A stretch of DNA of 59,851 nucleotides, counting the filler, from Bipalium vagum (taxonomy: Eukaryota): assembly GCA_037834085.1 (NCBI GenBank). It is 3 parts of 3 records of this genome, joined end to end, with 100 filler letters (N's around TTAATTAATTAA, not from the genome) between each part and the next. Parts side by side here need not be neighbours in the genome. Positions count along the whole stretch, not along the records: positions 1 to 26,966 come from JBBMKC010111138.1; 2 more parts are not named here. One strand, written 5' to 3'. The notes below the pieces were generated by a model, which saw nothing but the letters and a program-made list of their open reading frames with translations, was not told the DNA's origin and searched no databases. Position numbers and translations under genes: made by a program. Numbering within the stretch: position 1 is the stretch's first letter; the number at the start of each line of letters is the position of its first letter. Positions 1-57,459 of the stretch are shown here, one piece after another.

Positions 1-408
1 TTGATGAGGGCTTCGACATCGCTTGAATCAGTCTCATTTGGACGCCCGGAGCGAGAGACATCATTTAAATTGAAATCACCACTTCTGAATTTGGCAAAAC
101 ACTTTTGGCATACGCGTTTTGGTAAGGCATCAACTCCATACACTTTGCATAATTTTGTATGTACCGCCGCGGCTTCCTTACCTTTATGAAAATAATATAA
201 TATTTATATAAATAATATATAACTTACCTTTCTTAAAATAATATAGCAAGATATAGCGAAAATGCATATTGTTATCATCCATATTGTAAATTCAATTTCC
301 GCTAACAAGATTTAATTATTAAAACAATAATTGAAATAAGATATTTTTAATGTATTAGTTTGAAAAATTTTTATATTAAAAAGCGCACGAACTTAGTTGC
401 CAACCCAA
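1..408 (-). mobile_element. mariner element 5' end (TIR plus transposase N-terminus interrupted by a 46-nt intron-like segment); runs off the window start
   Basis: TIR ttgggttggcaactaagttcgtgcgctttt on - (379-408) next to TA. ATG at 282; joining 228-282 to 1-181 gives MDDNNMHFRYILLYYFKKGKEAAAVHTKLCKVYGVDALPKRVCQKCFAKFRSGDFNLNDVSRSGRP, a typical mariner HTH region. Confidence 0.92.
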
Positions 409-736
409 TATATGTAAAAGTAAAATATATTCATGTCTTGAATGCCTGTGATTTACTATCAAATTTATGATAATAATAATAAATTTATAAGGTAATTGAA
501 TGAATTTTTTATCTGGCTTGTTAATATATTATTTTTTAATATTTAATATATTTTGAAATTAAATTAATCGTGATCTATCTTAAATACTGAAGTGTACTTT
601 TACATTCAGCCGTGTATTATTGGATAATAAAATATTTCGATCACTCACTTTAATTTATCAAGGTTTTTATTATTGTTTTCATTATCATTATCATTATTGT
701 TATTATTGTTTTCCTGTGTTTTTCGATATGTTACAC

Positions 737-836
737 CTGGTTTAACAAGTCCTTTTGATTTTAAATTTTGGCATTGGGACTTTTCATCCTCCGTGATTCC
801 GGGACAATGAGACTTAGCGATAACAAGCCTGTTATT
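737..836 (-). CDS. candidate internal exon, unknown protein
   Basis: tttag acceptor, open frame NNRLVIAKSHCPGITEDEKSQCQNLKSKGLVKP, CAG|gtgtaa donor. Phase-compatible with the candidate exon at 3238-3280. Confidence 0.5.
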
Positions 837-971
837 CTAAATGTAAATTGTATACTAAATATATAATATTAAAATATTTGAAAGTTATTATACAATTTAC
901 TGATCTTAATTTTAGGTGTTCATGTAAACAGAAATAATAAAATTAATACATTAAAACTAATTTTTTGACAA

Positions 972-1703
972 TAGTTAGTCGGAAAATAATGTCCGATCTT
1001 AACATTGAACTTTAAACTTAAGCAGATCAAGTCTAATTATTCCTTCAAGCGATACCTTATTTTGATGAAATTATGGTTTTGGAGCTTGAACTCAGTCCAA
1101 CCGTTATGATGAGCGCTTGTGGTTGTAAAAAAGAACCTATTTTTCGTCACATGTCACGATTTCCTCGAGAAAAAAATTGCTGATATTTATCAAAAGAAGT
1201 GACGAGTACAGTTCAAAATGATGATTTTATTGTTTTTAGTTTAAATCATAAGGTATTGTCAATCTTCCACAAGTTTCCCAGTTGATTTAGATCACCAAGA
1301 ACTTTTTAGAAATTAGCGTCTAACTGTTCTGCGATCTCTTGGCTTGTTTGACTTGAATTTAATGTAATAAATACATTCCATTTTTCTATTTCCATTGAAA
1401 CATGATGTCCACAATCTTCATCAACAGGGCTATTATCTTCATCTCAAATATCGATGTATTAACTGCTCTCTTGTCTAATGCGCCACTGATATTTTGATTT
1501 TAATATTTTTGAATTCATAAAGATCGTTCTTATTTATATTTTATTAATATTTGAATTTTTCACTAAAAAGTTTTACTATTTAAACAAATTTTATTCTTTT
1601 ATTGAAATACTATTATCTAAAATATTTTATATTTCTTTGAACTTAATTTGTTTGAGCATAAAATTGAATTTCAAAATCGGAAATTATTTTCTGACCAACT
1701 TAA
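972..1703 (-). mobile_element. internally deleted, degenerate mariner
   Basis: Imperfect TIRs (tagttagtcggaaaataat / attattttctgaccaacttaa) and decayed HTH/WVPH-region coding remnants on -. Confidence 0.75.
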
Positions 1704-2202
1704 TTGATCTAACGAATCTACTTTTCCTGAATATAATTCACTTTTTTCTTTTTTTAAAAATTATTATTTAAAATAGTATAACAGTAAATATTTGACATAA
1801 ATCGAGATTTGAATTTTCTTATTTCTTTATTATATTCTCTGAAGGTTGACATAAAGAGATTCAATAAATTTACAGTTAAGGATCAAAGTAAATATGCTCT
1901 CTCTTTATTCACCGTTAAACTATATTATGGCTTCAATCATGACGGTTTACATATGTTGATGAAAGGAAAAAATCATAAGATTTTTTTTATTTCTCTAACA
2001 AATCAAAGGAAATGCTGAATCAAAAGATATTGTTAAATTAGTCGATGTTACGAAATCTTATATTTCAAGAGCAGCTTAAATATTTACCAACGATATTATC
2101 AGTTTTAGTAAAATGAAAAGATAATAAATATAAGTAACAATAATACCATTGGTGCTAATGATAAAAACAAACAAAGAAGTATAATAAATAATGATAAAAA
2201 TA

Positions 2203-3046
2203 TCAGGTGTCCAATTAAGTTTTTGCCTTTTTTTTTAAAAAAAGTAAGTCTATTTTTTAAGTATATATTTATTCATCGAAACAGAGTCCTTCACATTGTT
2301 TCCCTTTGCTCCAACTGGGTAATCCTATCTTAATAGAATTCCATAGGTTTACCGCTGAAGAAAGTAGATGCTTCGGATTTTAGATCTGCTTCATTTTCGA
2401 GTGTCCTTTTCTTTAGAGTCTTATTGAGAAAAAAAAACAAATGAAACTCTGTTGCCGAGACATCTGTGTTTAACTTATATCTTTCTTCCAATCTGATGCA
2501 AATTCTTCCTTATTGTTTCTTCGTTGGTATTAAATGTCAATTCAAGTTCTGTAAATGTCAGACTTGAATTAGCCTCAACTGGTTTTTTCAATTTATAATT
2601 GCTCTTGGATACTGGTCTTCTAAGTAGGTTCATAATCTAGATTCTCATTACGTCTGAAATCAATTACAAACTGCTTTTTCTTTTAATGCGTCTTTTACAC
2701 ATGCTAAAAAAGTTTTAGAAAAGTTTCTGAGGCATCAAATCTTAGCTTGTATTCATAAAGTAGACAGGAACGGATGGTTATTTTTTTCGGTCATTTTAAC
2801 TAATAAAAATTATCAAAAAGCAATTATAATATAATATTAGGTTGTCCAGTATGAAATGTCGATTGAAATTTGATTGACTACTAAAAATACGACATTTCAT
2901 ACTGGACAACCTAATATATTTAAGTATAAACAAGAATATTTGATTTAAAGTAATATTTTTAAACAAATTCTTTTGAATAGGAAAAAAAAATAAATTATTC
3001 GATGAAATGTAAATTACAAAATCGCCAGAAACTTAATCGGACACAA
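2203..3046 (-). mobile_element. degenerate mariner with nested MITE
   Basis: TA-tcaggtgtccaattaagttt and aaacttaatcggacac ends; decayed transposase remnants on -. Confidence 0.7.
2837..2914. mobile_element. 78-bp mariner MITE (MADE1-like architecture)
   Basis: Perfect 25-bp TIRs ttaggttgtccagtatgaaatgtcg / cgacatttcatactggacaacctaa, 28-bp spacer, TA on both sides. Confidence 0.92.
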
Positions 3047-5599: not shown

Positions 5600-6929
5600 T
5601 TTTATGTCTAGTACTTAGATGGCCAATACTATTGACATAACGTAGAACAGTTACAATGAAACAGAAAGACAAATTATCAAATAATTCAATGACGGATTTG
5701 GAGTAGCAGAAATATATGAGATGTCAAATTACAGTCACACAACTGTTGACAGTATCTGTAAAAGAGATAAATCCGCAATAAAATGGCCTTAAAAATATAT
5801 GTACGTTAAAGCAAAAGGATGACACTAAAGTCCGTCCGAAAATTATAATTAAAATGGAGCCAATATGAATGATTTTGATACAAGATTTGAATATAAAGGG
5901 TTTACCATTAAGCAAAGAAAATATTTGGATATTTATAATTCCTTAAGGCAGTCTGATGAGAATCATTCATTTAATGTTGTGTAAATGTTGGTTCAAGAAT
6001 TTAAAAAACTGAAATCAATTACGTGATCTACGTATGAATGGTGAAATGGCAAGAGCTGATAGAAAAGGAACTACAGATTTTGTAAGGAAATTCTAATGGA
6101 AGTTAATGAAATATATTCGTTGTCACAACTAATAAATATGGAAGAGTGTGATTTGTTTTGGAAAAATGACATCAAAAACGGTTTATTGAAAAATCAGGAG
6201 AAACACCACCAAGTCACAAGGCTTCAAAAGAATGATTGACTTTTTTTTAAGAGGCAATTCAAGTGTTAATTTAAAATTGAACCCACTTTAATATATACAC
6301 ACGATAACCTGAGAGCTTTAAAAATGTTAATATAGATAAACTTCGTGTTTATTGGAGAGCAAATAAAAATGCATGAATGGTAAACGCAATATTTTTTGAT
6401 TGGGTGAAAAAAGCCTACTTAAGCAATTAAAGATTTATTCTGAAAAGTACAGCATTCATTTCTCATTTTTAGTTTTACTTGATAATGCACCACGACATTC
6501 AAAACTAGAATCTCTAAATTCTTTATTTGATAGCATTAAGTTTCAGTTTCTCTCATCAAACACAACCTCCATTATGCAACCTATGGATCAGAGTGTGATA
6601 GCAACATTTAACGTTACTACCAAAAAAACCATATCAATCAATTTTAAACCAAAATGTTGATGTGGAAGCACTTAAGTTACTGGTTAAAAATATTCAATCG
6701 TAAATCCAATTAATAATATAGTTCTTTTTAATGTAAGCATGAACCGTCATTGTTACTTCTTCATTGATATTATTGATTACGTTTAAAGGTTTAGTCAAAA
6801 TAAAAATATACTAATATATCCTTATTTGTCATTGTTTAAAAGACTGGAACCCCGTTTTGTATTATTCTCTAATCTTTATTTGTGTAACTTTTTTGGAACG
6901 TATCTCTTACAAAAATCGAGTTCCCCCTG
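5600..6929 (+). mobile_element. degenerate pogo/Tigger element
   Basis: DDE_1-type motifs VLLDNAPRH and FLSSNTTSIMQPMDQSVIATF; CENP-B-like N-terminal remnants; right end cgagttccccctg-TA. Left end approximate. Confidence 0.88.
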
Positions 6930-9589: not shown

Positions 9590-10257
9590 CAGGGTAGCTC
9601 AAAAGTAACTTAATGATTTTAAATAATATTAAAATGTAAATATTCCAGACAATTATTTATTTTGAATATTACATCAGATCAGTCCATAAGTTCGTGCGTA
9701 TTAATAAATATTATATAAATATAAAAATAAAAAGCAAATCGAAATCGATATGAAACATTTATTCATGGAAATAATTACCATTGTTTTCTACAATCTTTTT
9801 CCACCTGTCAGGAAGTTTTTTAAAACCATCTGCATAAAATGACAAAGGTTTGAAGAATCAAAGATATAATGCAATACCCACGAATTTATGGACTGACCTG
9901 ATACATAAACAATAATTCACAGAGGTCTTTATTTCTGGTTTGCTACGGTCTTCCCAATCTTTACAAATCGTTTACGGAGCCCTGACCTCGGAAACGTTTA
10001 ATTAATTGCATAATCATAAAGGCTGTTGGTGGCTTCTTAACATTGAAATGTTGGCAATATTTCCGTTGAGTTCGGATTATTGAATTATTTTTTTGAAACT
10101 AAAATTCCACGATTTTCGTTCGTTCAGATATTGTATATCTTTGTGACATTAATTTCTTGGAATCCTTCTTATATCTACAATTATTTCAAAATAAATAAAT
10201 ATTGATTTTATTTTTTATGAATTTTTAAAATCATTAAGTTACTTTTGCGCCACTCTG
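9590..10257 (-). mobile_element. non-autonomous Tc1/mariner element with a nested mariner deletion derivative (9674-9901)
   Basis: Outer TIRs cagggtagctcaaaagtaacttaatgattttaaa / tttaaaatcattaagttacttttgcgccactctg with TA flanks. Inner TIRs tcagatcagtccataagttcgtg / cacgaatttatggactgacctga. Confidence 0.85.
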
Positions 10258-14460: not shown

Positions 14461-14660
14461 AACGAAAAGAACAAAACTGATAATATTATAAATTCAATAT
14501 TTCCGAAAAATATTTTCGAGCAAATGAGGGCTGGCAAGGATGTGATAGCTCAACATTACGAATGCGTTACGGTTTACTTTTCTGATATTGTTTCATTTAC
14601 AACGATTGCATCTAAACTAAACCCATTGGAGGTTATCGAAATGCTCAGTGACTTGTATAC
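14461..14660 (+). CDS. guanylyl cyclase, exon 6 (signalling helix, first catalytic Asp)
   Basis: NEKNKTDNIINSIFPKNIFEQM...VTVYFSDIVSFTTIAS..PLEVIEMLSDLYT; gtatga donor. Confidence 0.93.
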
Positions 14661-14705
14661 GTATGATTTAATATTTGTTGTTTCTCAATTATATGAGCTG
14701 ATCAG

Positions 14706-14815
14706 AACATTTGATAACTGTTTAAATAAATATGATGTCTACAAAATCGAGACCATCGGAGATGCCTATTTAGTTGTGAGCGGACTTCCAGTTCAAAATG
14801 GAATATCACATGCTG
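14706..14815 (+). CDS. guanylyl cyclase, exon 7
   Basis: TFDNCLNKYDVYKIETIGDAYLVVSGLP, the class III cyclase signature with the guanine-selecting Glu; GT-AG boundaries. Confidence 0.95.
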
Positions 14816-14858
14816 GTAAAGATTTCAAATTGAAGATAGTTTATTTATTTATTTTCAG

Positions 14859-14963
14859 AAGAAATTTGTAATCTAAGTTTATCTGTTAGAGACGTGATGA
14901 AGGAATTTAGTCACAAAAAAATTACAAAAAATACTTTAAAATTGCGAATTGGTATTCATTCAG
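14859..14963 (+). CDS. guanylyl cyclase, exon 8
   Basis: ttttcag acceptor; EICNLSLSVRDVMKEF...LKLRIGIHSG; phase 1-1. Confidence 0.93.
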
Positions 14964-15129
14964 GTCGATATTCATTATACTTTTATATTATTATTAGTAG
15001 TAGTTTTCATTATTTTTTCTGTTCTATTTATAAATCAGACTTACAATGCCATTACTGCATTATTTGACGATTATCATATATCATATTTCTTTTTTGATCA
15101 TAAAATATTTTTTGATGAGGTTAACCATT

Positions 15130-15960
15130 CATTAATTAGTTTGAATAAATATAAAACTCATTGAGCATTTGGAAATTTATTTATATTATAAAGCTGTTTT
15201 AATAAAGTAATTTGATGTATTAAAATTGATTTAATTTTTGAAATAATACATCTTTAGAAAATGATTGATCAAAGATATAGAGTGCTGGTTTCAAGCAAAT
15301 TAAACCAGACGATGAGTCACATCGTAATTCATGTCAAGCATTCGGAGATGAAGTTCCAGTATTACGTCAATGTCAGCGATGGTTTCGGCGTTTCAAAGAT
15401 GATGATGAACGTCCTGAAGACGAAAAACATCAACGTAATCAGCAAGTTGTGGACAACGAAGAATTAAAAGAAAACATTAAGTTGGATTCCTGCCAAACTA
15501 TTCGTGAGCGTGCAGAAAATTTTGGTTGCACTCAGTACTATAGAAATCTTCCTAGATGCAATCGGAAAATTAAACAGAAACTGAAAATGAGTTCTGCAAT
15601 CTCAAGACATAGCGGGTGAACAATGCCCGAATTCTTCTTCGCGAAACTATGAACAGCGGATTCCTTAACTATTTTGAAATGTCAGATGAAAAATGGATGT
15701 CATAAAATAATACAAGAAAACGACAGTGGATAACCGTTGGAGAACAACAAAAATCGACTTCAAAGCTAAATAATCGTGGATTCAAGGTCATATTGTTTGT
15801 ATGATGAATGGCAAAGATTCTGTATATTTCGAAATGCCTGTTAATGGTCAGCGGAGAATACAGGCCTATACACATAACAAATCAGCTGTGTGGACCAATC
15901 TTTGCACCTTCAAATGAAAGGCATTTTTGCTTCGGTTCTACAATCATATCTGTCTGAAAA
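15130..15960 (+). mobile_element. degenerate mariner in cyclase intron
   Basis: AFGDEVPVLRQCQRWFRRFKDDDERPED, MSDEKWMS and KVILFV*W-like remnants. Confidence 0.85.
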
Positions 15961-21482: not shown

Positions 21483-22446
21483 ACGGGTGTTCACTTGAAA
21501 TTTGAAATAGTTGAAAATTTACATTTGATTACAAATGCTTTGTAGAATTTAGTGGTTACGTTTTAGTTATATTGATAAATAAGCATCGATTTATTATAAT
21601 ACACTTTCTAGACATTTCTCTTGGCTACGTTAATAAAATTTTGAAAGAAGAGGGCATCTCAGCCTATCAGAAGCAAAAGAAGTCTCATACAACTGAGAAG
21701 CAAATTGTGTCTCAGAAGCTGCGGATCTGTCGCCTCTATGCAAAGGTTTTATCAATGGGTGACGGAAACCCCAGTTTTCTTGTTGATGATGAGAGTTACT
21801 TTACTCTATCTCATCACAGTATAGCTGTTAACCAGTATTATTATTCAACATCAAGAAACAAAGCTAGCGGTGATGTGAAGTTTTATTCACACATTAAATT
21901 TGAGCCGAAAGTTCTGGTTTGGATTTCTATGAGTGATGCTGGAATTTCGCAACCATTCATTTGTCATTCAAATCTTGCTGTCAATAAAAAAATTTATTCT
22001 CAGAAATGCGTTCGCCAGCGCCTTTTTCCATTTCTGGACGCCAACTACATATTTTTCATAATTGCTACATTTGAAGATCTTAAAATCAATTTTGCACCAA
22101 AGAATATGAATCCTCCATGCTTATCGCACTTGCGATCCATTGAAGACTTTTGATCTATCCTAAGATATAAAGTTTACCAACACAATTGGCAAGCAAAAGA
22201 TCTGGATCAACTCAAAAGAAGGATTAAATACTGTTTGAAAAAGTTAGATTTCACTGCTGTACGTGCCATGATGAGAGATATGAAAGTTAAGTTGAGAAAG
22301 GCTAGAGCCAATGGTGCTGATTCTTTACTTCATTGACATTTTCTAATTCTCTGATGTCTACTGTTTAATTTGTGTTGAAATAAATTTTTTGTAACTCGAT
22401 TATTTAACTTTTATAACATCATTCCAAATTTAAAGTAAACACCTGT
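21483..22446 (+). mobile_element. Tc1-like element (TRT/DD37E-like), internally deleted
   Basis: TIRs acgggtgttcacttgaaatttg / caaatttaaagtaaacacctgt with TA flanks; VDDESYF, KFEPKVLVW, NPPCLSHLRSIEDF. Confidence 0.88.
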
Positions 22447-22559: not shown

Positions 22560-23358
22560 TTCTCTTAACAAACTGCCATTTTTTTGCATTATCATAATAA
22601 TTATCAGACTAATTTTCATCATACCATTATGCTATTATATCAAGCGATTAGTTTTAGTGAGTCTTTAGGATCAAAAGGATGAATTAAATGATTTTTTATA
22701 TTTTTCCCGTACCTATCACACAGTAGGCAGTTGCCGACTTATCGAACATAAGGTATAAAGACATAAACTTTTACTAGTCAAGTTTTCAAAGCAGTGTTTG
22801 TCAGCACCATCCCAGGTGTACTATTAGATATTAATGGTGATCATAATTTTCTCAACCGTTTTGATAGATACATTTGTTTCTATTTTGAATTATGGTGCTC
22901 TGGTTGACATGTAACCTTCTTGTCAATTCTACAGTCGATTGAGTATAATCCTCTTTCAAAAGTGCTTTCAAGTCATCCAAACTCATTTCATATAGCTGCC
23001 CAATACGTTCTTTATCGTTCAAATCAAAATCATGGATTTGAAGCATCGAAACCGTTTACGACATAAGCTCTCAGCTCCTGCTCAATCATAATATGTATTG
23101 TAAATAATCCGAGTTGCTTCGGCTGATGTTTTGCTCTGATTAAACAAAAACAATATACAGTGGCATAATTGCATTTTATCTACTTCCATTATAAGTTCTG
23201 CAAATGAATTGGTAAACTTAAATTAATTATCAGATTAATGATATAAATATAATCAATATTGACTTAAACAAAATACAAATTTTAGCTATATTATTATTAA
23301 TATTACTTAAATTCCACATATATGTAAATCAGCGATGTGAACTTGTGTATATGCCTAA
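22560..23358 (-). mobile_element. degenerate mariner
   Basis: MEVDKMQLCHCILFLFNQSKTSAEA..DFDLNDKERIG..QSTVEL; TIR-like end near 23330-23358. Left end approximate. Confidence 0.82.
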
Positions 23359-23972
23359 CAAATAAAACTTGACTCTTTTAAATCATGCAGTCATCTATTT
23401 AGAAATTGACTTACATTAATAAGATGATTTAAAATATGAATTTGGAAATTTGCCACTTATTATTAAATAATTAAAGTAACCTTATGAAAGGCAAAACTGA
23501 ATGATTTTATAAAAAATATTTTAAATCTAAATGTTATCTGTATTATGTTATATAATGAACTCAAATCACAGCTTGTAAACTTTTTAAACGATAACATTTA
23601 GAACTATTTTGTAAAGAACATTTTTTGAATGAAAGATGACATAAGATCATTAGCAAAAATGGCCAATACTTTACTGAATAAAATTGTTTATTCTTTATAA
23701 AATTATCTTTATCTTTGTCCAAAAATACGCAATTACCTAGCTACCTATCCATTATTTTAATTAAATAGAAATATATTAATAATTATTTTATAAATATATA
23801 TAATTTATTTAAATATAGTTTATTACTTAGATTCTATTATGAAATTGAAAAAATAATATTAATCCATTTAGAATAAAAAAACGTTTAAAAATTGATAATT
23901 GAATAATAAATTTCGCGATGTGATTGGCTTCGGTTACGTTTAAAAGTGAGAGTTAAAGAAAAAATATAAAAA

Positions 23973-24246
23973 ATGAAGTTCAATAAAAACAATAAAGTTT
24001 TTAGTGAAGCAACTCTGAGAAATAGTTCTAATTTGTCTTACTTTTGGACAACGAATAAAAATGATATTGATCCGGAAATAAAGACATTATTAGACCAAAG
24101 TCGATCAAGCCATATTATTGAATTTTTGAAATGTTTTTTTGTGGCCCTGATACCGTTAGTCATAACAATTGCTTTCATAACAGTATTTACAACGAAAAGC
24201 TTTGAAAAGATCCATGGCTCGTACCAGTCGACATGTCAAATTAATC
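23973..24246 (+). CDS. NIT-domain guanylyl cyclase, exon 1 (N-tail plus first TM helix)
   Basis: aaaaATG; TM FFVALIPLVITIAFITVF; C|gtgagt donor in phase 1; ATTGG (CCAAT) box at 23923. Confidence 0.85.
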
Positions 24247-24641
24247 GTGAGTTCAAAAAATAAATAATTATTCATAAAAAAATAATATTGATTTTTAAAT
24301 TTTTTAGGAAAAATTATATTTTTAAAAAAATCATTTAATTTTTCCTTGTTATATCTAAAATTTGTATAATTTCTTGATAATTATTATTTTAAGAAAAGAT
24401 TACATTAAAAGATTACGAATTTCTAAAAAATATGAATGAATTAGTTAAATTTAAATAAATGTTAAATATTATTATGATTTTTAAAATGTTAAATCTCACT
24501 AATAATACATCTCTGACATGAAGTATTAGTGAAGTATATTTTATTTTATTTTATTAACATCTTTTTCCATTTCTACATTTCTTGTTATAAATTAACGATT
24601 TATTATGTTTTTCTTAATTATATTTATTTTATTCCTTACAG

Positions 24642-24897
24642 AGGCCATGGAGATAATTGCAGCTGTCCAAGCTCTTCAGGTGGAAAGAGGTTTGTCTACT
24701 CAATTTATAGCATCAAATCGATCAATTGATTCTCAAAGTATGCTAACTTCCCGGAATGACACTAACCTAAAATTTACATTAATAAAAAAATGGATCAATG
24801 AATCATATTTTACTAATTTTTACAATCTAACTGTTATACGTGCGTCAACGGATTTAATAAATATTTTGAATAGGTATAGAAATCAAATTGATGACAA
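24642..24897 (+). CDS. NIT-domain guanylyl cyclase, exon 2 (NIT domain start)
   Basis: ttacag acceptor; AAVQALQVERGLS matches the NIT motif LVH.LQ.ERG.S; LNRYRNQIDD. Confidence 0.9.
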
Positions 24898-24954
24898 GTA
24901 CTTTACGTTAAAAAGAAATCAGAGAAATAAATAAATGTTTTAATTTATTTTTAG

Positions 24955-25177
24955 AAATTTCAATCTTTCCATTATTAATAATATCAATTATTACACCACC
25001 CTTCATGAAAGTTTTATAAACTTCATATCTGATATGGATTTGGGAGATTATTTTAAGAACTGGCAGTACTTAATTGGACTCAGTAATCTTGTAATGATCA
25101 CAGATACCCTTGGTATCCAAAGAGCTTTAGGTAGCGCATTATTTATGAATTGTGATCTTATTTCTGACCTGAAATCT
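24955..25177 (+). CDS. NIT-domain guanylyl cyclase, exon 3
   Basis: INYYTTLHESF...DTLGIQRALGSALF (second NIT G.ERA.G motif); TCT|gtaagt donor in phase 0. Confidence 0.9.
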
Positions 25178-26002
25178 GTAAGTTCTTTTCATTAAAATAA
25201 TTTATTAATTAAATTTTTATTAATAAAAGTTAAAAGTGCTTATGTTATAACTGAAAATTTTACGTATACTTTTATTAATAATTATTTATATCTTTATATT
25301 TTTATAAATATGAATAGACTTTGTGGGTGTTGTATAAAACCAAAATTTAACACGATTACAAGAAGTTTCTAGACATATAATCCCAAGAAAAAATCCCCTC
25401 GGAATAAAATACCTGAAGTATAAAAATACCATTCATAGTGAAAGGAGATTCATTGTTAGACCTTATATCTTCATATGTTCACATGGAAGTATAAGTATTT
25501 AAATTTAAAATTAAATTGATAATAGTGTTAAGTTCCTAAAAGTGACTGAATTTAGGTTACAAATAACGATAATGGTCTTTTAGGTATATATAAGCGTATA
25601 TGACTATCAGAAGGATTTATGAAGTGTAATTCGGAACCGTAAATAAAAAAGGATAAATGAAAACAAATCGAATCGAATACAAATATTTTTATTTGCAAAA
25701 ATGTGATTTTACAAGGGGGGTTTAAATGAGAATCATTAAATCCTTTCAAAGTTATCCTGTAACATGTGGAAAAGCCCTGAGATGATTTACCAACTCTAAC
25801 TGTTGTGTAAATCACAAACCAAAAGAAAAGTATGGAGAATGTAAAAACAAAAAATGAAGGTAATACTATTCAACAGTGATTACCGGAAAATTGTGGATTT
25901 TAAGATAATTTAAAATGGTCTGTGCAAACTATAATAATTTACTAAATGTAATAAATAATGAGTTAAATAATAATAATGAAAAATATTAATAATAATAATA
26001 AT

Positions 26003-27770: not shown

Positions 27771-28359
27771 CTTAAGTCATGGGACCCTGAGAACGATATA
27801 ATATTCAAAAAGCGAGGCTTGAAAAAAGTGCAAATAAATCAGCTTGCAATCGATTTAATTCCATCGGTGGTTGCTGAGAGTTACCACATACATATCTAAA
27901 ACACACAAAGGCTCTTTCCTACTTATTCTCTTCCTTAATATTCTTATCTCTAATTCAAGCCATATCATTACTGTATAAAATCCTTATCAATATTTTTATA
28001 AAATATTTTCTACATAGGTGTGCATTTGTACCGGTTACACACTTACATGGATATGGAGTGCATATGTGATCTTTATTTTTTTTAGTGTTTTGTGTTCGAA
28101 TATTGGATACGTAAGTGTGCTTATGCACCCTTTATTTTGTCTACTTCATATGGGGACACAGCTGATTGTCTATTATTTAAATAAAGAGTAAAATACATAT
28201 AAATAATGTTCTTTTAACAAAATGGTAAGTCAAGTAAGTTGAAGAGAGGAAAATTTTACAATTGGAAGGTAAAAGATGATTTGTGAACTTCCAATCCATG
28301 ATTCTTATATTTAAAGGAGAATGGAGGTGAGGGAATTGGGTTACTTCTGGAATATTGCG

Positions 28360-30861: not shown

Positions 30862-31434
30862 TGTATCTCGGCGTGGAGAAAGATTTAATGGCTATTAGGG
30901 AAAATAGCCGTCTCTAAGCTTAGGGATTGGTGATCCTAGACCAATCCCTACGAATATATAAAGAGATGGCTATTCTCAGAAATGGACCAGAAACTACGTC
31001 CAGAAAGACAATCAAGGATATTTTATTTTTGCCGAGCACATTTTCAAGTATATATTCGTAGAGGACGGTTCAAAGATATTGGCCGAGGACGATTCCAGTA
31101 ATTTTTCTCAACGCTATGGTTATGCAAACGGATTTTACAAGGGGACCCAGCGAGCTTGGGAACTCCTAGGCGACCTGAGATCTTTTGGTGAGATCGTTTT
31201 ATTTATTTATTTTTGTTATTTTCTGAAAAGTTTCTTTCGTGACTATTTCTTCTCATCTATTTCATTACAGCAGTAGTTGTGTTTTCTTTATCAATATTTG
31301 TTTGGTGACATTTTTCAGTTATTGGACTTATTAGAGGCTTATCTGGGCGATCAGTATATTAGGGATTGTGTTTTTTTTATCAATAAAGTTTTATTATAGA
31401 TATTTTTTGATTCAGTTCTTAGGGTGCGAATACA
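30862..31434 (+). mobile_element. LTR-like GC-richer island (possible solo LTR)
   Basis: TGTAT...ATACA ends, TATATAAAAG at 30955, AATAAA at 31382; no clean TSD found. Confidence 0.4.
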
Positions 31435-36248: not shown

Positions 36249-37283
36249 TTAGGTATGGGAATTAGTTCCCATCGGTTTGTTATAGATTTATTATTTTTAT
36301 TATAAATATCGTGTATTTGTCATTGAAAATAAATCTAAAAATTATATTGTAATAGATATATATCGTCAGATTTTAGATATCAATAATCAGTATTTGTTTT
36401 AACTGATTAAATTGTTTATTGATTTTATGGAAAATGTAAAATCATCATCATCATTTGCGGGAATCATTATTTTGTTACAATTCAAAGAAATCAACAGCTG
36501 AAGTCTATAGAATAATGAGAAAAACTTATGCTGACTATTTTCTGTTCTAACTAACATAACAAGAATGGTATCGATGATTTAAGACAGGTGGCTTTCAGAA
36601 TGTTCAGGACAACCAAAAGAGTACAGAAATGATGATTTACGTGGAATTATCAAAGACACGTGCCAAATCTTTGAAGAAATAACATAGACATTGAATGTTG
36701 ATAGGAGAACTGTTGGTAAACGGATGTACCCATTGGAAATTATCCAAAAATATGGAAAATAAATACTATATAATTATACTCAAAAGCAAGAAAATCGCAA
36801 AACCGTTTGCAAAATGTAATTAACAAGACATTCATTTTTGCATCGAATTGTAACTGGTGATGAAAAATGAGGGCAGAAAACCATGGAAAATGCCCGGAGA
36901 ACCGTCAACATCGACAATACGAAGATGAACGAACAGAGGTAAAGTGATGCTATGTATCTAGTGGAACTAAGCGAGTGTAATATACTTCTCTAGACGTGGT
37001 TGAGAGGTTCTACTTTACAATCGTACACATCAGACATAGCACCATCTGACTTCTACTTGTTTCGATCCATGGAGCATTCTCTTGCTGAACAGGCCTTCAA
37101 TTCCTGTGAAGAAGTCAAAGAATTGGATTGCTTCCTTTACTCATGAATCCATTCCTTGCCAAAAAGATAGCCAAAAGTTGTAACTGCCAACCTAAATATT
37201 TTGGCTGAAACAAATGTTTTTTAATTTTTAAATAAACGACTTTTTCCATAAAATAAACGATAGTAATAAATTCCTACTCCTAA
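36249..37283 (+). mobile_element. degenerate mariner
   Basis: TIRs ttaggtatgggaattagttcccatcg / cgatagtaataaattcctactcctaa; LHRIVTGDEK* and YTSDIAPSDFYLFRSM. Confidence 0.9.
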
Positions 37284-43850: not shown

Positions 43851-44844
43851 TTAGGTGTGTATAAATAACCTTTTTATTTTAAAAAAGAAAAGTGGTTTTA
43901 TAATGAAATATCATATTTTGTCCTTATTCGTTTTCTTTAAATTGATCGATTTCTTTAAAAATGTAAACATTTAATTCAAATCCAAAAAGGCTATAGATAA
44001 AAATTTAATTAGAGCATGTTTGATTTATGAATTCAAATTGGGGTCTAACGCTTCAGAAGCATGTCATAGGATATGTCTAGCGCTTAGTAATGATGTCTTA
44101 CAGGAGAGGACATCCTAAAAATGCCTTATAAAATTAACGTTGATGAGTCTTTTTGAAGATGTATTACACTCCAGAAGACCATCTGACATCTGTGACCAAG
44201 AGCTAAAAACTTGTTGAAGAAAATTCTAAACTTTCATGCCAAGAGTTTGTCGAAGATTAATGTAAGAGACGAAATATGTCGCACACATTTGCATGCAATT
44301 GAAAATTCAAAGAAACTGCCCAAGCGGATCTCACTTTCATTAACAAAAAAGAAAAAGCTTCACAGATTAATACTAAGTTCTTCTCATCTTTCACGATATG
44401 GTGTAACATCATTTTTGGACTTCTTGGTTACCTGTGATGAAAAATGGATTTACTTTATCAACAATGTCAGCTCAGAAACAATGAGATTACACTGGATGAG
44501 ATTGCAGAGAAGATGCTGGGCGATGAAGAGCCGGTGGGAACCGAAGGTGATGACATAACTATCGAGGACTAAGTCGTTTCGTTCGAAGAAGCCCATTGCA
44601 CTTGGAGCACCGTACAGATGTTCTTGTAACAGAAAAGCGAGAAGCCCAATGTGATGCAAGCGTGCGATCAGTTAGATAACGAGATGCACGTGATTCGTCA
44701 AAAGAAGATCCGCCAGCTGACGATTCTTGAAAGCTTTGTGCTGATAAGTAACTTGAGAAAATAAATTTCTCATTTTATGCCACTCTTGCTGCTATGCAAC
44801 TCTTGCTAGGTCACGACAACTGGCCTAGTAACGAGATTCGACTA
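43851..44844 (+). mobile_element. mariner 5' half abutting a pogo/Tigger 3' end
   Basis: Mariner TIR ttaggtgtgtataaataa, RACLIYEFKLGSNASEA, LVTCDEKWIYF; then acidic tail ..KKIRQLTILESF and Tigger-type end aacgagattcgacta-TA. Confidence 0.8.
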
Positions 44845-47999: not shown

Positions 48000-49253
48000 T
48001 TAGGTTGTAACATAATTTTTCGTGATTTTTTACAATATATAAAATGAAGTTATGAAAACATAGTTTATTTAGGAATAATAATGAAAATCATTCGATAACA
48101 TAATTTCCGTCATTGTTTAGGACCTTCTTCCATCTTTCCACCAATTTTTCGAAACTTTCACTCAATAAATTGCTAGATTTGCTTTGAAAGAAATTTGTGG
48201 TCCAAATTTTAAGATATTGCCTCGTTCGGAAAAGTAATACCTTTCATTTAGTTTGGCAGCGAGCGGAAAAGATAAAATTCAGTTGGCGCAAGATCCGAAG
48301 AATACACAAGGGTTGGAAAAATCTCCCAATTGAGCTCTTTGAGGGTGGTTTTGGTTATATTTTCCGTGTACGGTCTGGCGTTATTATGGAGAAGAATCAC
48401 TTTGGCTCGTTTATACTGGTAGTTCACTTTAATAATGTCGTTTACTCGACGCAATTGATTTATGTATAATAGCATGTCGACTGTCTTGCCTTTTGAAACC
48501 ATTTCCAAGTGTATCAGACAATCCCAATTCCACTAAACACACATTATATTTTTTGGATGCAATTCTGGTTTAATTCTGGACGTACCTGTGCAACCAGGAG
48601 TCATCTACTACTCACTATACTTTAAATTTGTATACAGACACCCTTTTTCATTCCCTGTTATGATTCGATGAAGAAAACGCTTTTTGTGGTTGCGTGTTGC
48701 TCGGTGTCTGGCAAGACTTTGAGCAGCAATTTATAAACGACTTTCTCTGATTTTTTCATTGAACTCATATGGTACATAGAAACCAACTTTGGCAAAAACC
48801 ATTTGATTTTAGGTGGTGGTATACTGTCATTTGATTTCTATTCACGTTTTGTGATAATTCCCTGCATGTTTGACGACGCCCACTTCCACCAGTTTGATCA
48901 ATTGGTTATCATTTAAATGTGTAATTTTCAAATTTATTATACCAATATTTTGCAGTTGTTCAGGCTAAAAATTTTTTTTCGACACTGCAAATTTCCTTGA
49001 CAGCTTCTTCTACTTTGCTACTGCGATTAAAATAAAATAATAATGTGTCGAAAACGGTGCTTTTGATCAATTTTGCATTTCATTTCAAACCAGTGGATTT
49101 TTAAAAAATCAAATGATATATCACAATATTTACTATAATTTTCTTAATAAGTAAAATAGATTTCAAATAAATGTATTTACTAATATATAAATATAATCTG
49201 GTTAAACAAAACTGTAATACATTAAATTCACGAAAAATTATGTTAAGACCTAA
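48000..49253 (-). mobile_element. near full-length degenerate mariner in GPCR intron 1
   Basis: TIRs ttaggttgtaacataatttttcgtga / tcacgaaaaattatgttaagacctaa; ILLHNNARPY and YSSDLAPTEFYLFRSL. Confidence 0.93.
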
Positions 49254-56509: not shown

Positions 56510-57459
56510 TAAGAGATAGTCGATGGATTCAAATTTTAATCAATTTGTTTTGTTACTTTACTTTTTGTGTCATCTTTTGTAAAGAGGATCGGAACAGGAA
56601 ATTGAAGCATATTTTACATTTCTATGATCGGAAAGAGAAAATTGTATCACAAGCGTGTAAAAGATCATGTGAAGTGTATTGGAAAGAAGCTTAGAGCATA
56701 ACATGCAAGCATCAAAACCCATATTAAGAATATAGGTTACTTGAATAAAATTAAATTTATGTGTTCCTTACCAACTTATGGAGAGTCACATTAGACAACG
56801 GTTTGAAATCTGCGATTTGCTTATCAAGGGCAATAAAAATAACTCATTTTTAAAATAATTGGTATTGGGCGATAATTTTCATCGGAAAAGATCATGACGT
56901 AAGTCTGAGGAGAAGTCTGAGTATTGTAACCGTCATGCAATGCTGATGGTTATCAATAGAAAGTTATGCTATACATTTGGTGGGATTATCACTGAATCAT
57001 ATAGTTTGAAATTTTTTCAAACAGCCGAAGAAGTTATCCTGACAATTTAACACTGAAAATTAAATAAATTACCAAACCTTAAAGGCATTGTGTTTCATTA
57101 TGACTGCAAAATCACACTGCTTTGACCACTCGGCAAAAAATATTTAACCTTGGTTAGGACATATTAATACATACACCATAAACCCCAGATCTCGTCCCTT
57201 CTGATTAACAACTGTTTCGCTCTATGAATTTGATGAATAGTAAAACTTTACTGATGATGATTACATTAAATCCGACTTGCATATTTTTGCGGATAAGCTC
57301 AAGAGGTTTTATGAGCGAAGAATTTTTGTTTCTTAGAAGATGGTAACTGGTCCTTGATAGTAACAAAAGATTCATAATTTTAAAAACATATTTTTTCATA
57401 TAGTTTCATATTTCTTTGATTCTTTAAAAATATCGGGAAATATTTTCTTGCTAACCCAT
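56510..57459 (+). mobile_element. degenerate mariner
   Basis: KVMLYIWWDY, GIVFHYD, HTP*TPDLVPSD*QLFRS; TIR-like end gggaaatattttcttgctaaccca. Confidence 0.85.

Follow-up and report, generated by a model that had tools for sequence, protein, structure and literature searches.

The first 410 bases of the Bipalium vagum DNA analysed here (the window, 59,851 nt in its full length) carry, on the minus strand, the left end of a mariner transposon whose transposase frame is broken after codon 18 by a 46-nt insert. On a modest balance of probability, the insert is a scar that error-prone repair of a DNA break left in a single damaged copy, or a single sub-lineage, of a multi-copy mariner, and it took the shape of an intron at an AG|GT that lay ready in the coding sequence. 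The initial annotation had presented it as a spliceosomal-type intron born by tandem duplication; the observation behind that claim is largely right, and the reading is overstated.

A mariner left end and its relatives

The element ends at a TA target-site dinucleotide (409-410, minus strand), a position that corresponds to the termini of related loci in an alignment. The adjoining left terminal inverted repeat (378-408, minus strand; inner limit approximate) was recognized by its similarity to both ends of the related locus L001, which reaches 88% over 34 nt with the right one and 80% over 41 nt with the left one. The TA and the short terminal repeat that define a mariner are therefore present at the left end, and the right end lies beyond the window. 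The 5' non-coding part (283-377, minus strand) is 57-58 nt shorter than in the relatives, as indicated by alignment gaps and by the distance from the terminal repeat to the ATG, which is 126 nt here versus 183, 183, 183, 183, and 184 nt in the five loci measured among the 11 related ones.

The transposase gene is split into two coding pieces on the minus strand. The first piece (228-282, ATG at 282) comprises 18 codons and 1 nt (55 nt) and is 72% identical over its length to a transposase of Ooceraea biroi (EZA53808.1, designated P0002). The second piece (1-181), which is open to the window edge, is 68% identical to the same protein and contains an HTH_48 domain (Pfam PF17906; E 3.2e-10, 40.4 bits against a cut-off of 24.1), which assigns it to the Mos1-type HTH proteins. 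The Mos1 and SETMAR chains also match this piece, and an atlas comparison agrees on the HTH family. A cluster with a protein of Monomorium pharaonis (XP_028047611.2, P0160) and the transposase of Forficula auricularia (P0177) are further relatives; the identity between P0166 and the Forficula transposase is 60%. These ant and earwig transposases resemble the present copy in the collinear N-terminal HTH region and in a similar terminal repeat, whereas they have a single open frame of 342 aa, Trp at position 46, and a 5' part of 183 nt. The motifs DD34D, WVPHEL, and YSPDL are found in P0160, and the corresponding region of the present copy lies beyond the window edge. The family is a putative member of the 'mellifera subfamily' (with Famar1 and Ammar1), the comparison made here being one of pairwise identity via relatives. 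Protein searches detected no near-identical family member, the best matches being 68-70% identical, and one search (16 candidates) came back blank. The closest DNA relative found was L001 (187-1476), a complete mariner that has an open frame and a terminal repeat at either end and is 70% identical in the coding part.

Eight other mariner remnants were located in the window, at 48091-49043 (-), 22891-23189 (-), 56754-57379 (+), 15290-15535 (+), 43993-44208 (+), 37021-37134 (+), 2303-2464 (-), and 9768-9851 (-), all of them far from the present family (about 25-43% to P0166). They had been described as damaged, which holds for the five in which stops were detected but not for the other three, whose aligned 28-82 residues contain none. 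The window also contains a fragment of a DDE_1 (pogo-type) transposase at 6400-6657 (+) and a 212-codon open stretch at 21515-22153 (+), which by eye resembles a Tc1-type transposase remnant and gave no Pfam match at E 0.01.

The insert and its probable local source

The insert occupies 182-227 on the minus strand. When it is read through, an in-frame stop at 186-184 terminates a product of 32 aa. When it is removed, the second coding piece starts exactly 19 residues from the start of the protein, as it does in 94/94 placeable relatives (a full-length search gave 119, of which 94 were placed against both pieces and 25 fell below the placement thresholds and were dropped). The exact spacing in all of these relatives indicates a true insertion, whose removal regains the ancestral spacing. 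Ten removal registers yield the identical product, and just one of the ten reads GT..AG. These results bear out the initial description of a stop-containing GT..AG segment that disrupts the frame and can be removed to restore it exactly.

The insert is accompanied by a 23-nt direct repeat at a lag of 46. The first copy (223-245, minus strand) consists of the exon end and the donor, and the second lies at 177-199; read as 245-223 against 199-177 they agree at 21 of 23 places, a score that no shuffle of the insert reached in 20,000 trials. The last 9 nt of the first copy (231-223) are repeated exactly at 185-177 as AAAGGTAAG, so that the junction carries the short direct repeat expected of a repair insertion. 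Among the 16 similar repeats at lags of 36-60 in the window, the other 15 sit in near-pure AT runs. A local duplication across AG|GT, as first proposed, is thus well supported. Pure tandem duplication is not supported, since it would insert 23 nt. The duplicated segment covers just 23 of the 46 nt, and the best match at a lag of 23 is 7 nt. In terms of the Rogers model, AGGT is present in the duplicated exonic segment, and the insert is not composed of whole duplicated units.

The exact 9-nt repeats enclose 37 nt of filler (186-222, minus strand), which contains two further copies of a 10-nt AT motif found at 245-236, as well as an imperfect palindrome of 26 nt with one mismatched pair (195-220). 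A palindrome of this length was reached by 62 of 20,000 shuffles and by 0/184 AT-rich host 46-mers. The direct 10-nt match of the filler to the flank is not significant on its own (1,332/20,000). The energy of the insert folded as DNA was ordinary (z 0.22), indicating that the hairpin is not unusually stable, and that of the region folded as RNA was ordinary as well (z 0.67). Elsewhere in the window the insert sequence gave low-complexity matches only, with no dispersed near-identical copies.

The second copy of the repeat departs from the first at 188 and 186 (CAT for AAG), and these differences abolish an AG that would sit 4 nt before the acceptor. In the 94 relatives the residue at the exon-side Lys codon is R in 61, K in 20, and H in 5. 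Because the exon-side copy fits the family (Lys/Arg 81/94, His 5/94), the inner copy is the diverged one. By our own arithmetic, the chance that the differences of the inner copy would remove the sole competing AG is 17-27%.

Splice signals and the condition of the copy

Considered as a candidate phase-1 intron, the insert has a donor of the full GTRAG consensus, including a T at +6 that is not derived from the repeat. The first AG after the U-rich tract is the frame-restoring acceptor, but it is AAG rather than YAG, and YAG is likewise absent among all 6 AGs that occur within 126 nt. A second donor-like site, AAG|GTAAGG, marks the start of the second coding piece (176-181, minus strand). Matches to a branch point, judged by eye, are weak and lie in near-pure AT sequence. 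The three putative host short introns, located from reading frames, are of 45 nt (14661-14705), 43 nt (14816-14858), and 57 nt (24898-24954). The 46 nt of the insert fall inside this range, as had been claimed, and all three introns end in CAG or TAG. The 45- and 43-nt introns interrupt guanylate cyclase catalytic exons at 14480-14964 (+), and the 57-nt intron interrupts NIT-domain exons at 23970-25195 (+). As the NIT-domain exons are located downstream of the cyclase exons, they represent a second gene or pieces out of order. Three unverified short-intron candidates located between open frames, 31188-31230 (+) with an AAG end, 27973-28017 (+), and 45 nt from 15713 (-), have two TAG ends and one AAG end, which are too few for an acceptor frequency.

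Since the duplication spans an AG|GT that already existed in the Lys-Gly-Lys codons, the GT..AG ends come free, and splice ends inherited from coding sequence are no evidence of selection. The intron shape of the insert needs no selection. When 46-nt insertions flanked by a 9-nt repeat were placed at random in the visible ORF, 794 of 20,000 gave a precisely removable GT..AG, and with a 23-nt repeat 2,369 of 20,000 did so; the corresponding values for two intact relatives were 1.9-11.8%. With eight other mariner remnants in the window, an intron-shaped case of this kind would be expected somewhere in the genome. In the related metagenome loci, no insert was present at the same place in any of the nine with a readable motif. 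The Gly codon in these nine is GGC or GGG, never GGT, and they consequently do not have the GT. As they belong to other families, about 65-70% alike, their lack of the insert says little on the present family.

The copy had been described as free of any other lesion. This is correct for stops and frameshifts, of which no more were found in the 78 visible codons, but not for Cys46, for a minority Pro39, or for the shortened 5' part. Position 46 (TGT, 99-101, minus strand) is Trp in Mos1, in SETMAR, and in 77/77 full-length relatives, those of the 119 whose placement starts at residue 1; among 149 mostly fragmentary matches, Trp was found in 127 and Cys in 8. The insert with its stop and the Trp46Cys replacement set this copy apart from an autonomous element with a single uninterrupted frame of about 342-350 aa. 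The Pro39 codon (120-122, minus strand) corresponds to Pro in 1/77 relatives and is the minority letter among the contigs of run X1, in which the other letter at place 122 holds a depth of 1463.6 of 1573.5. The count of odd residues at conserved columns is not exceptional, as 15/77 and 13/77 relatives score as high. Codons 54-71 are identical to the deepest of the listed contigs, which indicates that several of the odd residues are family features and not decay.

A search of sequencing runs with 1-3000 listed X1 alone, and no RNA run, which says nothing on expression. Run X1 was compared over 1-188; the kind of its contigs is unrecorded, and it may be the window's own source. Its 44 contigs on this stretch include 16 at 99% identity or above, 19 at 95-99%, 6 at 90-95%, and 3 lower, with depths of 13 to 835, whose sums are not a copy number, one 36-nt skip, and 8 loose ends. 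The skip, in frame, removes 77-112 from one contig. The sole contig at 176-185 is of low depth and joins place 185 to sequence like 367-397, with T runs at the joint, giving a derivative without the start of the transposase gene. Place 99 is covered by none of the listed contigs with 31 letters to both ends. According to the depth table no contig lies on 186-188, and no junction contig, insert-bearing or insert-free, is among those listed, which bears neither way. We read these data as pointing to a multi-copy mariner family that includes deletion derivatives, with one or more minority alleles in the window copy.

Origin of the insert and comparison with known cases

In the favoured scenario, a break repair would have copied the last stretch of the first coding piece a second time, adding filler of local origin through repeated rounds of templated synthesis (direct copy, fold-back, and re-annealing), probably of the polymerase-theta type. 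Polymerase-theta repair is described as leaving flank-templated, error-prone inserts with occasional reverse-complement parts (PMC5068794, in part), and repair-born introns as having short direct repeats (PMC3443670, in part). The present insert resembles such insertions in the direct repeat around it and perhaps in its composition, which may have been copied from the flanks with errors and with one segment reversed. Short repeats flank old introns too (25% versus 26% in Drosophila, in the available part of a review), although, at the rate tested here, this does not extend to repeats of 23 nt. Break repair is further favoured by an insert twice as long as its repeat, in which 9 nt are repeated exactly and a period of 23 nt is lacking, by the palindrome, by how cheaply a removable GT..AG arises, by the AAG acceptor, and by the lack of the insert from nine related loci. 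The lost Trp46, the minority letter at 122, the short 5' part, and the deletion derivatives in the same run fit a damaged copy. Against it stand the full-consensus donor with its +6 T, the host-range length, and the loss of the sole competing AG, together with the unexceptional total of odd residues, the family-like codons 54-71, and the ordinary flank match and hairpin energy. The window copy would then be non-autonomous, and selection would not be expected to keep the splice ends. If the copy is transcribed, the host spliceosome would probably remove the insert in part, given the strong donor, the host-like size, and the weak AAG acceptor, and the predicted spliced product would be a transposase still without the invariant Trp.

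A tenable but doubtful alternative is that the same duplication with filler produced a real intron in an active ancestor, that the family carried this intron along as it spread, like Tc1, Tc3, and Minos, and that the window copy decayed later. Precise restoration of the frame in the one GT..AG register agrees with this, as do the consensus donor, a size comparable with the planarian short-intron peak of 45-85 nt (PMC13594981, in part), and the loss of the competing AG from the intronic, diverged copy of the repeat. There are precedents in Tc1 and Tc3 of C. elegans, each of which acquired a small intron independently, that of Tc1 being rarely spliced (PMC6004069, in part). The AAG acceptor with no YAG nearby, the second donor right at the acceptor, the coding origin of the splice ends, which leaves no sign of selection, and the nine loci without the insert all weigh against it. 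It is rather unlikely, in our estimate, that templated break repair at its own AG|GT gave a DD34D mariner family of animals a working intron with which it then amplified, so that the template, the filler made by fold-back, and the subsequent AG loss can still be read and splicing regenerates the junction donor.

Classical tandem duplication in the sense of Rogers, as a triplicated 23-nt unit with a decayed middle copy, is improbable. The insert is indeed twice 23 nt, three copies of the 10-nt AT motif are present, AGGT lies within the unit, and multi-unit introns of such a kind are known from fission yeasts (PMC4974935, in part), but the distances between the motif copies are 26 and 20 nt instead of 23 and 23, the best lag-23 match is short, the middle copy must have decayed fully while the outer copies stayed at 21/23, and the palindrome is left unexplained. 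A mis-join in AT-rich sequence, between two members of a high-copy repeat, is very improbable: the family is high-copy, the window has gaps (176 N), and none of the contigs compared over 1-188 runs across the insert, but an assembly artefact would repeat existing sequence and would not readily write new palindromic filler and two substitutions. Target duplications of 9 nt are typical of Mutator-type elements, which offer a parallel to the 37-nt segment and the exact direct repeats of 9 nt on either side of it. Even so, a tiny mobile element or an excision footprint, Introner-like, is hardly credible, because the filler is probably made of neighbouring sequence, the palindrome lies off-centre without forming paired terminal repeats, and no match other than low-complexity ones was found elsewhere in the window.

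Intron gain is already known in the Tc1/mariner superfamily, from Tc1 and Tc3, from Minos with its 60-nt intron (PMC2874221, in part), and from plant mariner-like elements, in which introns were gained in grasses according to an earlier study cited in PMC4158355 (in part). The present case is like Tc1, Tc3, and Minos in having one small, independently acquired segment in or near the transposase gene. Theirs are fixed in active families with documented splicing, whereas here the element is a mariner proper, the candidate intron is known from DNA alone, and its source sequence is still visible. As in intron gain by tandem duplication, a duplicated exonic segment would give both splice ends and the coding sequence is unchanged on removal, but half of the candidate is filler instead of duplicated unit. 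The germline-specific intron of the Drosophila P element is similar in that unspliced RNA gives a short truncated product (PMC6719617, in part). In contrast, the unspliced product here would be just 32 residues long with its first HTH broken, and nothing supports the suggested tissue-specific splicing control. No report of an intron in animal mariners proper was found in the main texts of the largely open-access literature searched. Two genome-wide surveys of mariners (PMC4161770 and PMC5490172) do not use the word 'intron' in their main text, and the Drosophila one treats inserted and deleted stretches as part of routine decay. In planarians, mariners of several subfamilies have been reported (PMC3036899, in part), and the low GC and short introns of the window fit the planarian pattern.

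The source of most newly gained introns cannot be traced (PMC4974935, in part); in the present candidate, each base may be traceable to its neighbourhood. Since a multi-copy family would supply copies with and without the insert in one genome, the order of events is testable. Should the insert prove to be common to the family and spliced, it would represent an intron observed at its birth. If it is private and unspliced, it would show how cheaply a repair scar gains the shape of an intron at an AG|GT, and would advise caution in calling transposon introns from DNA alone.
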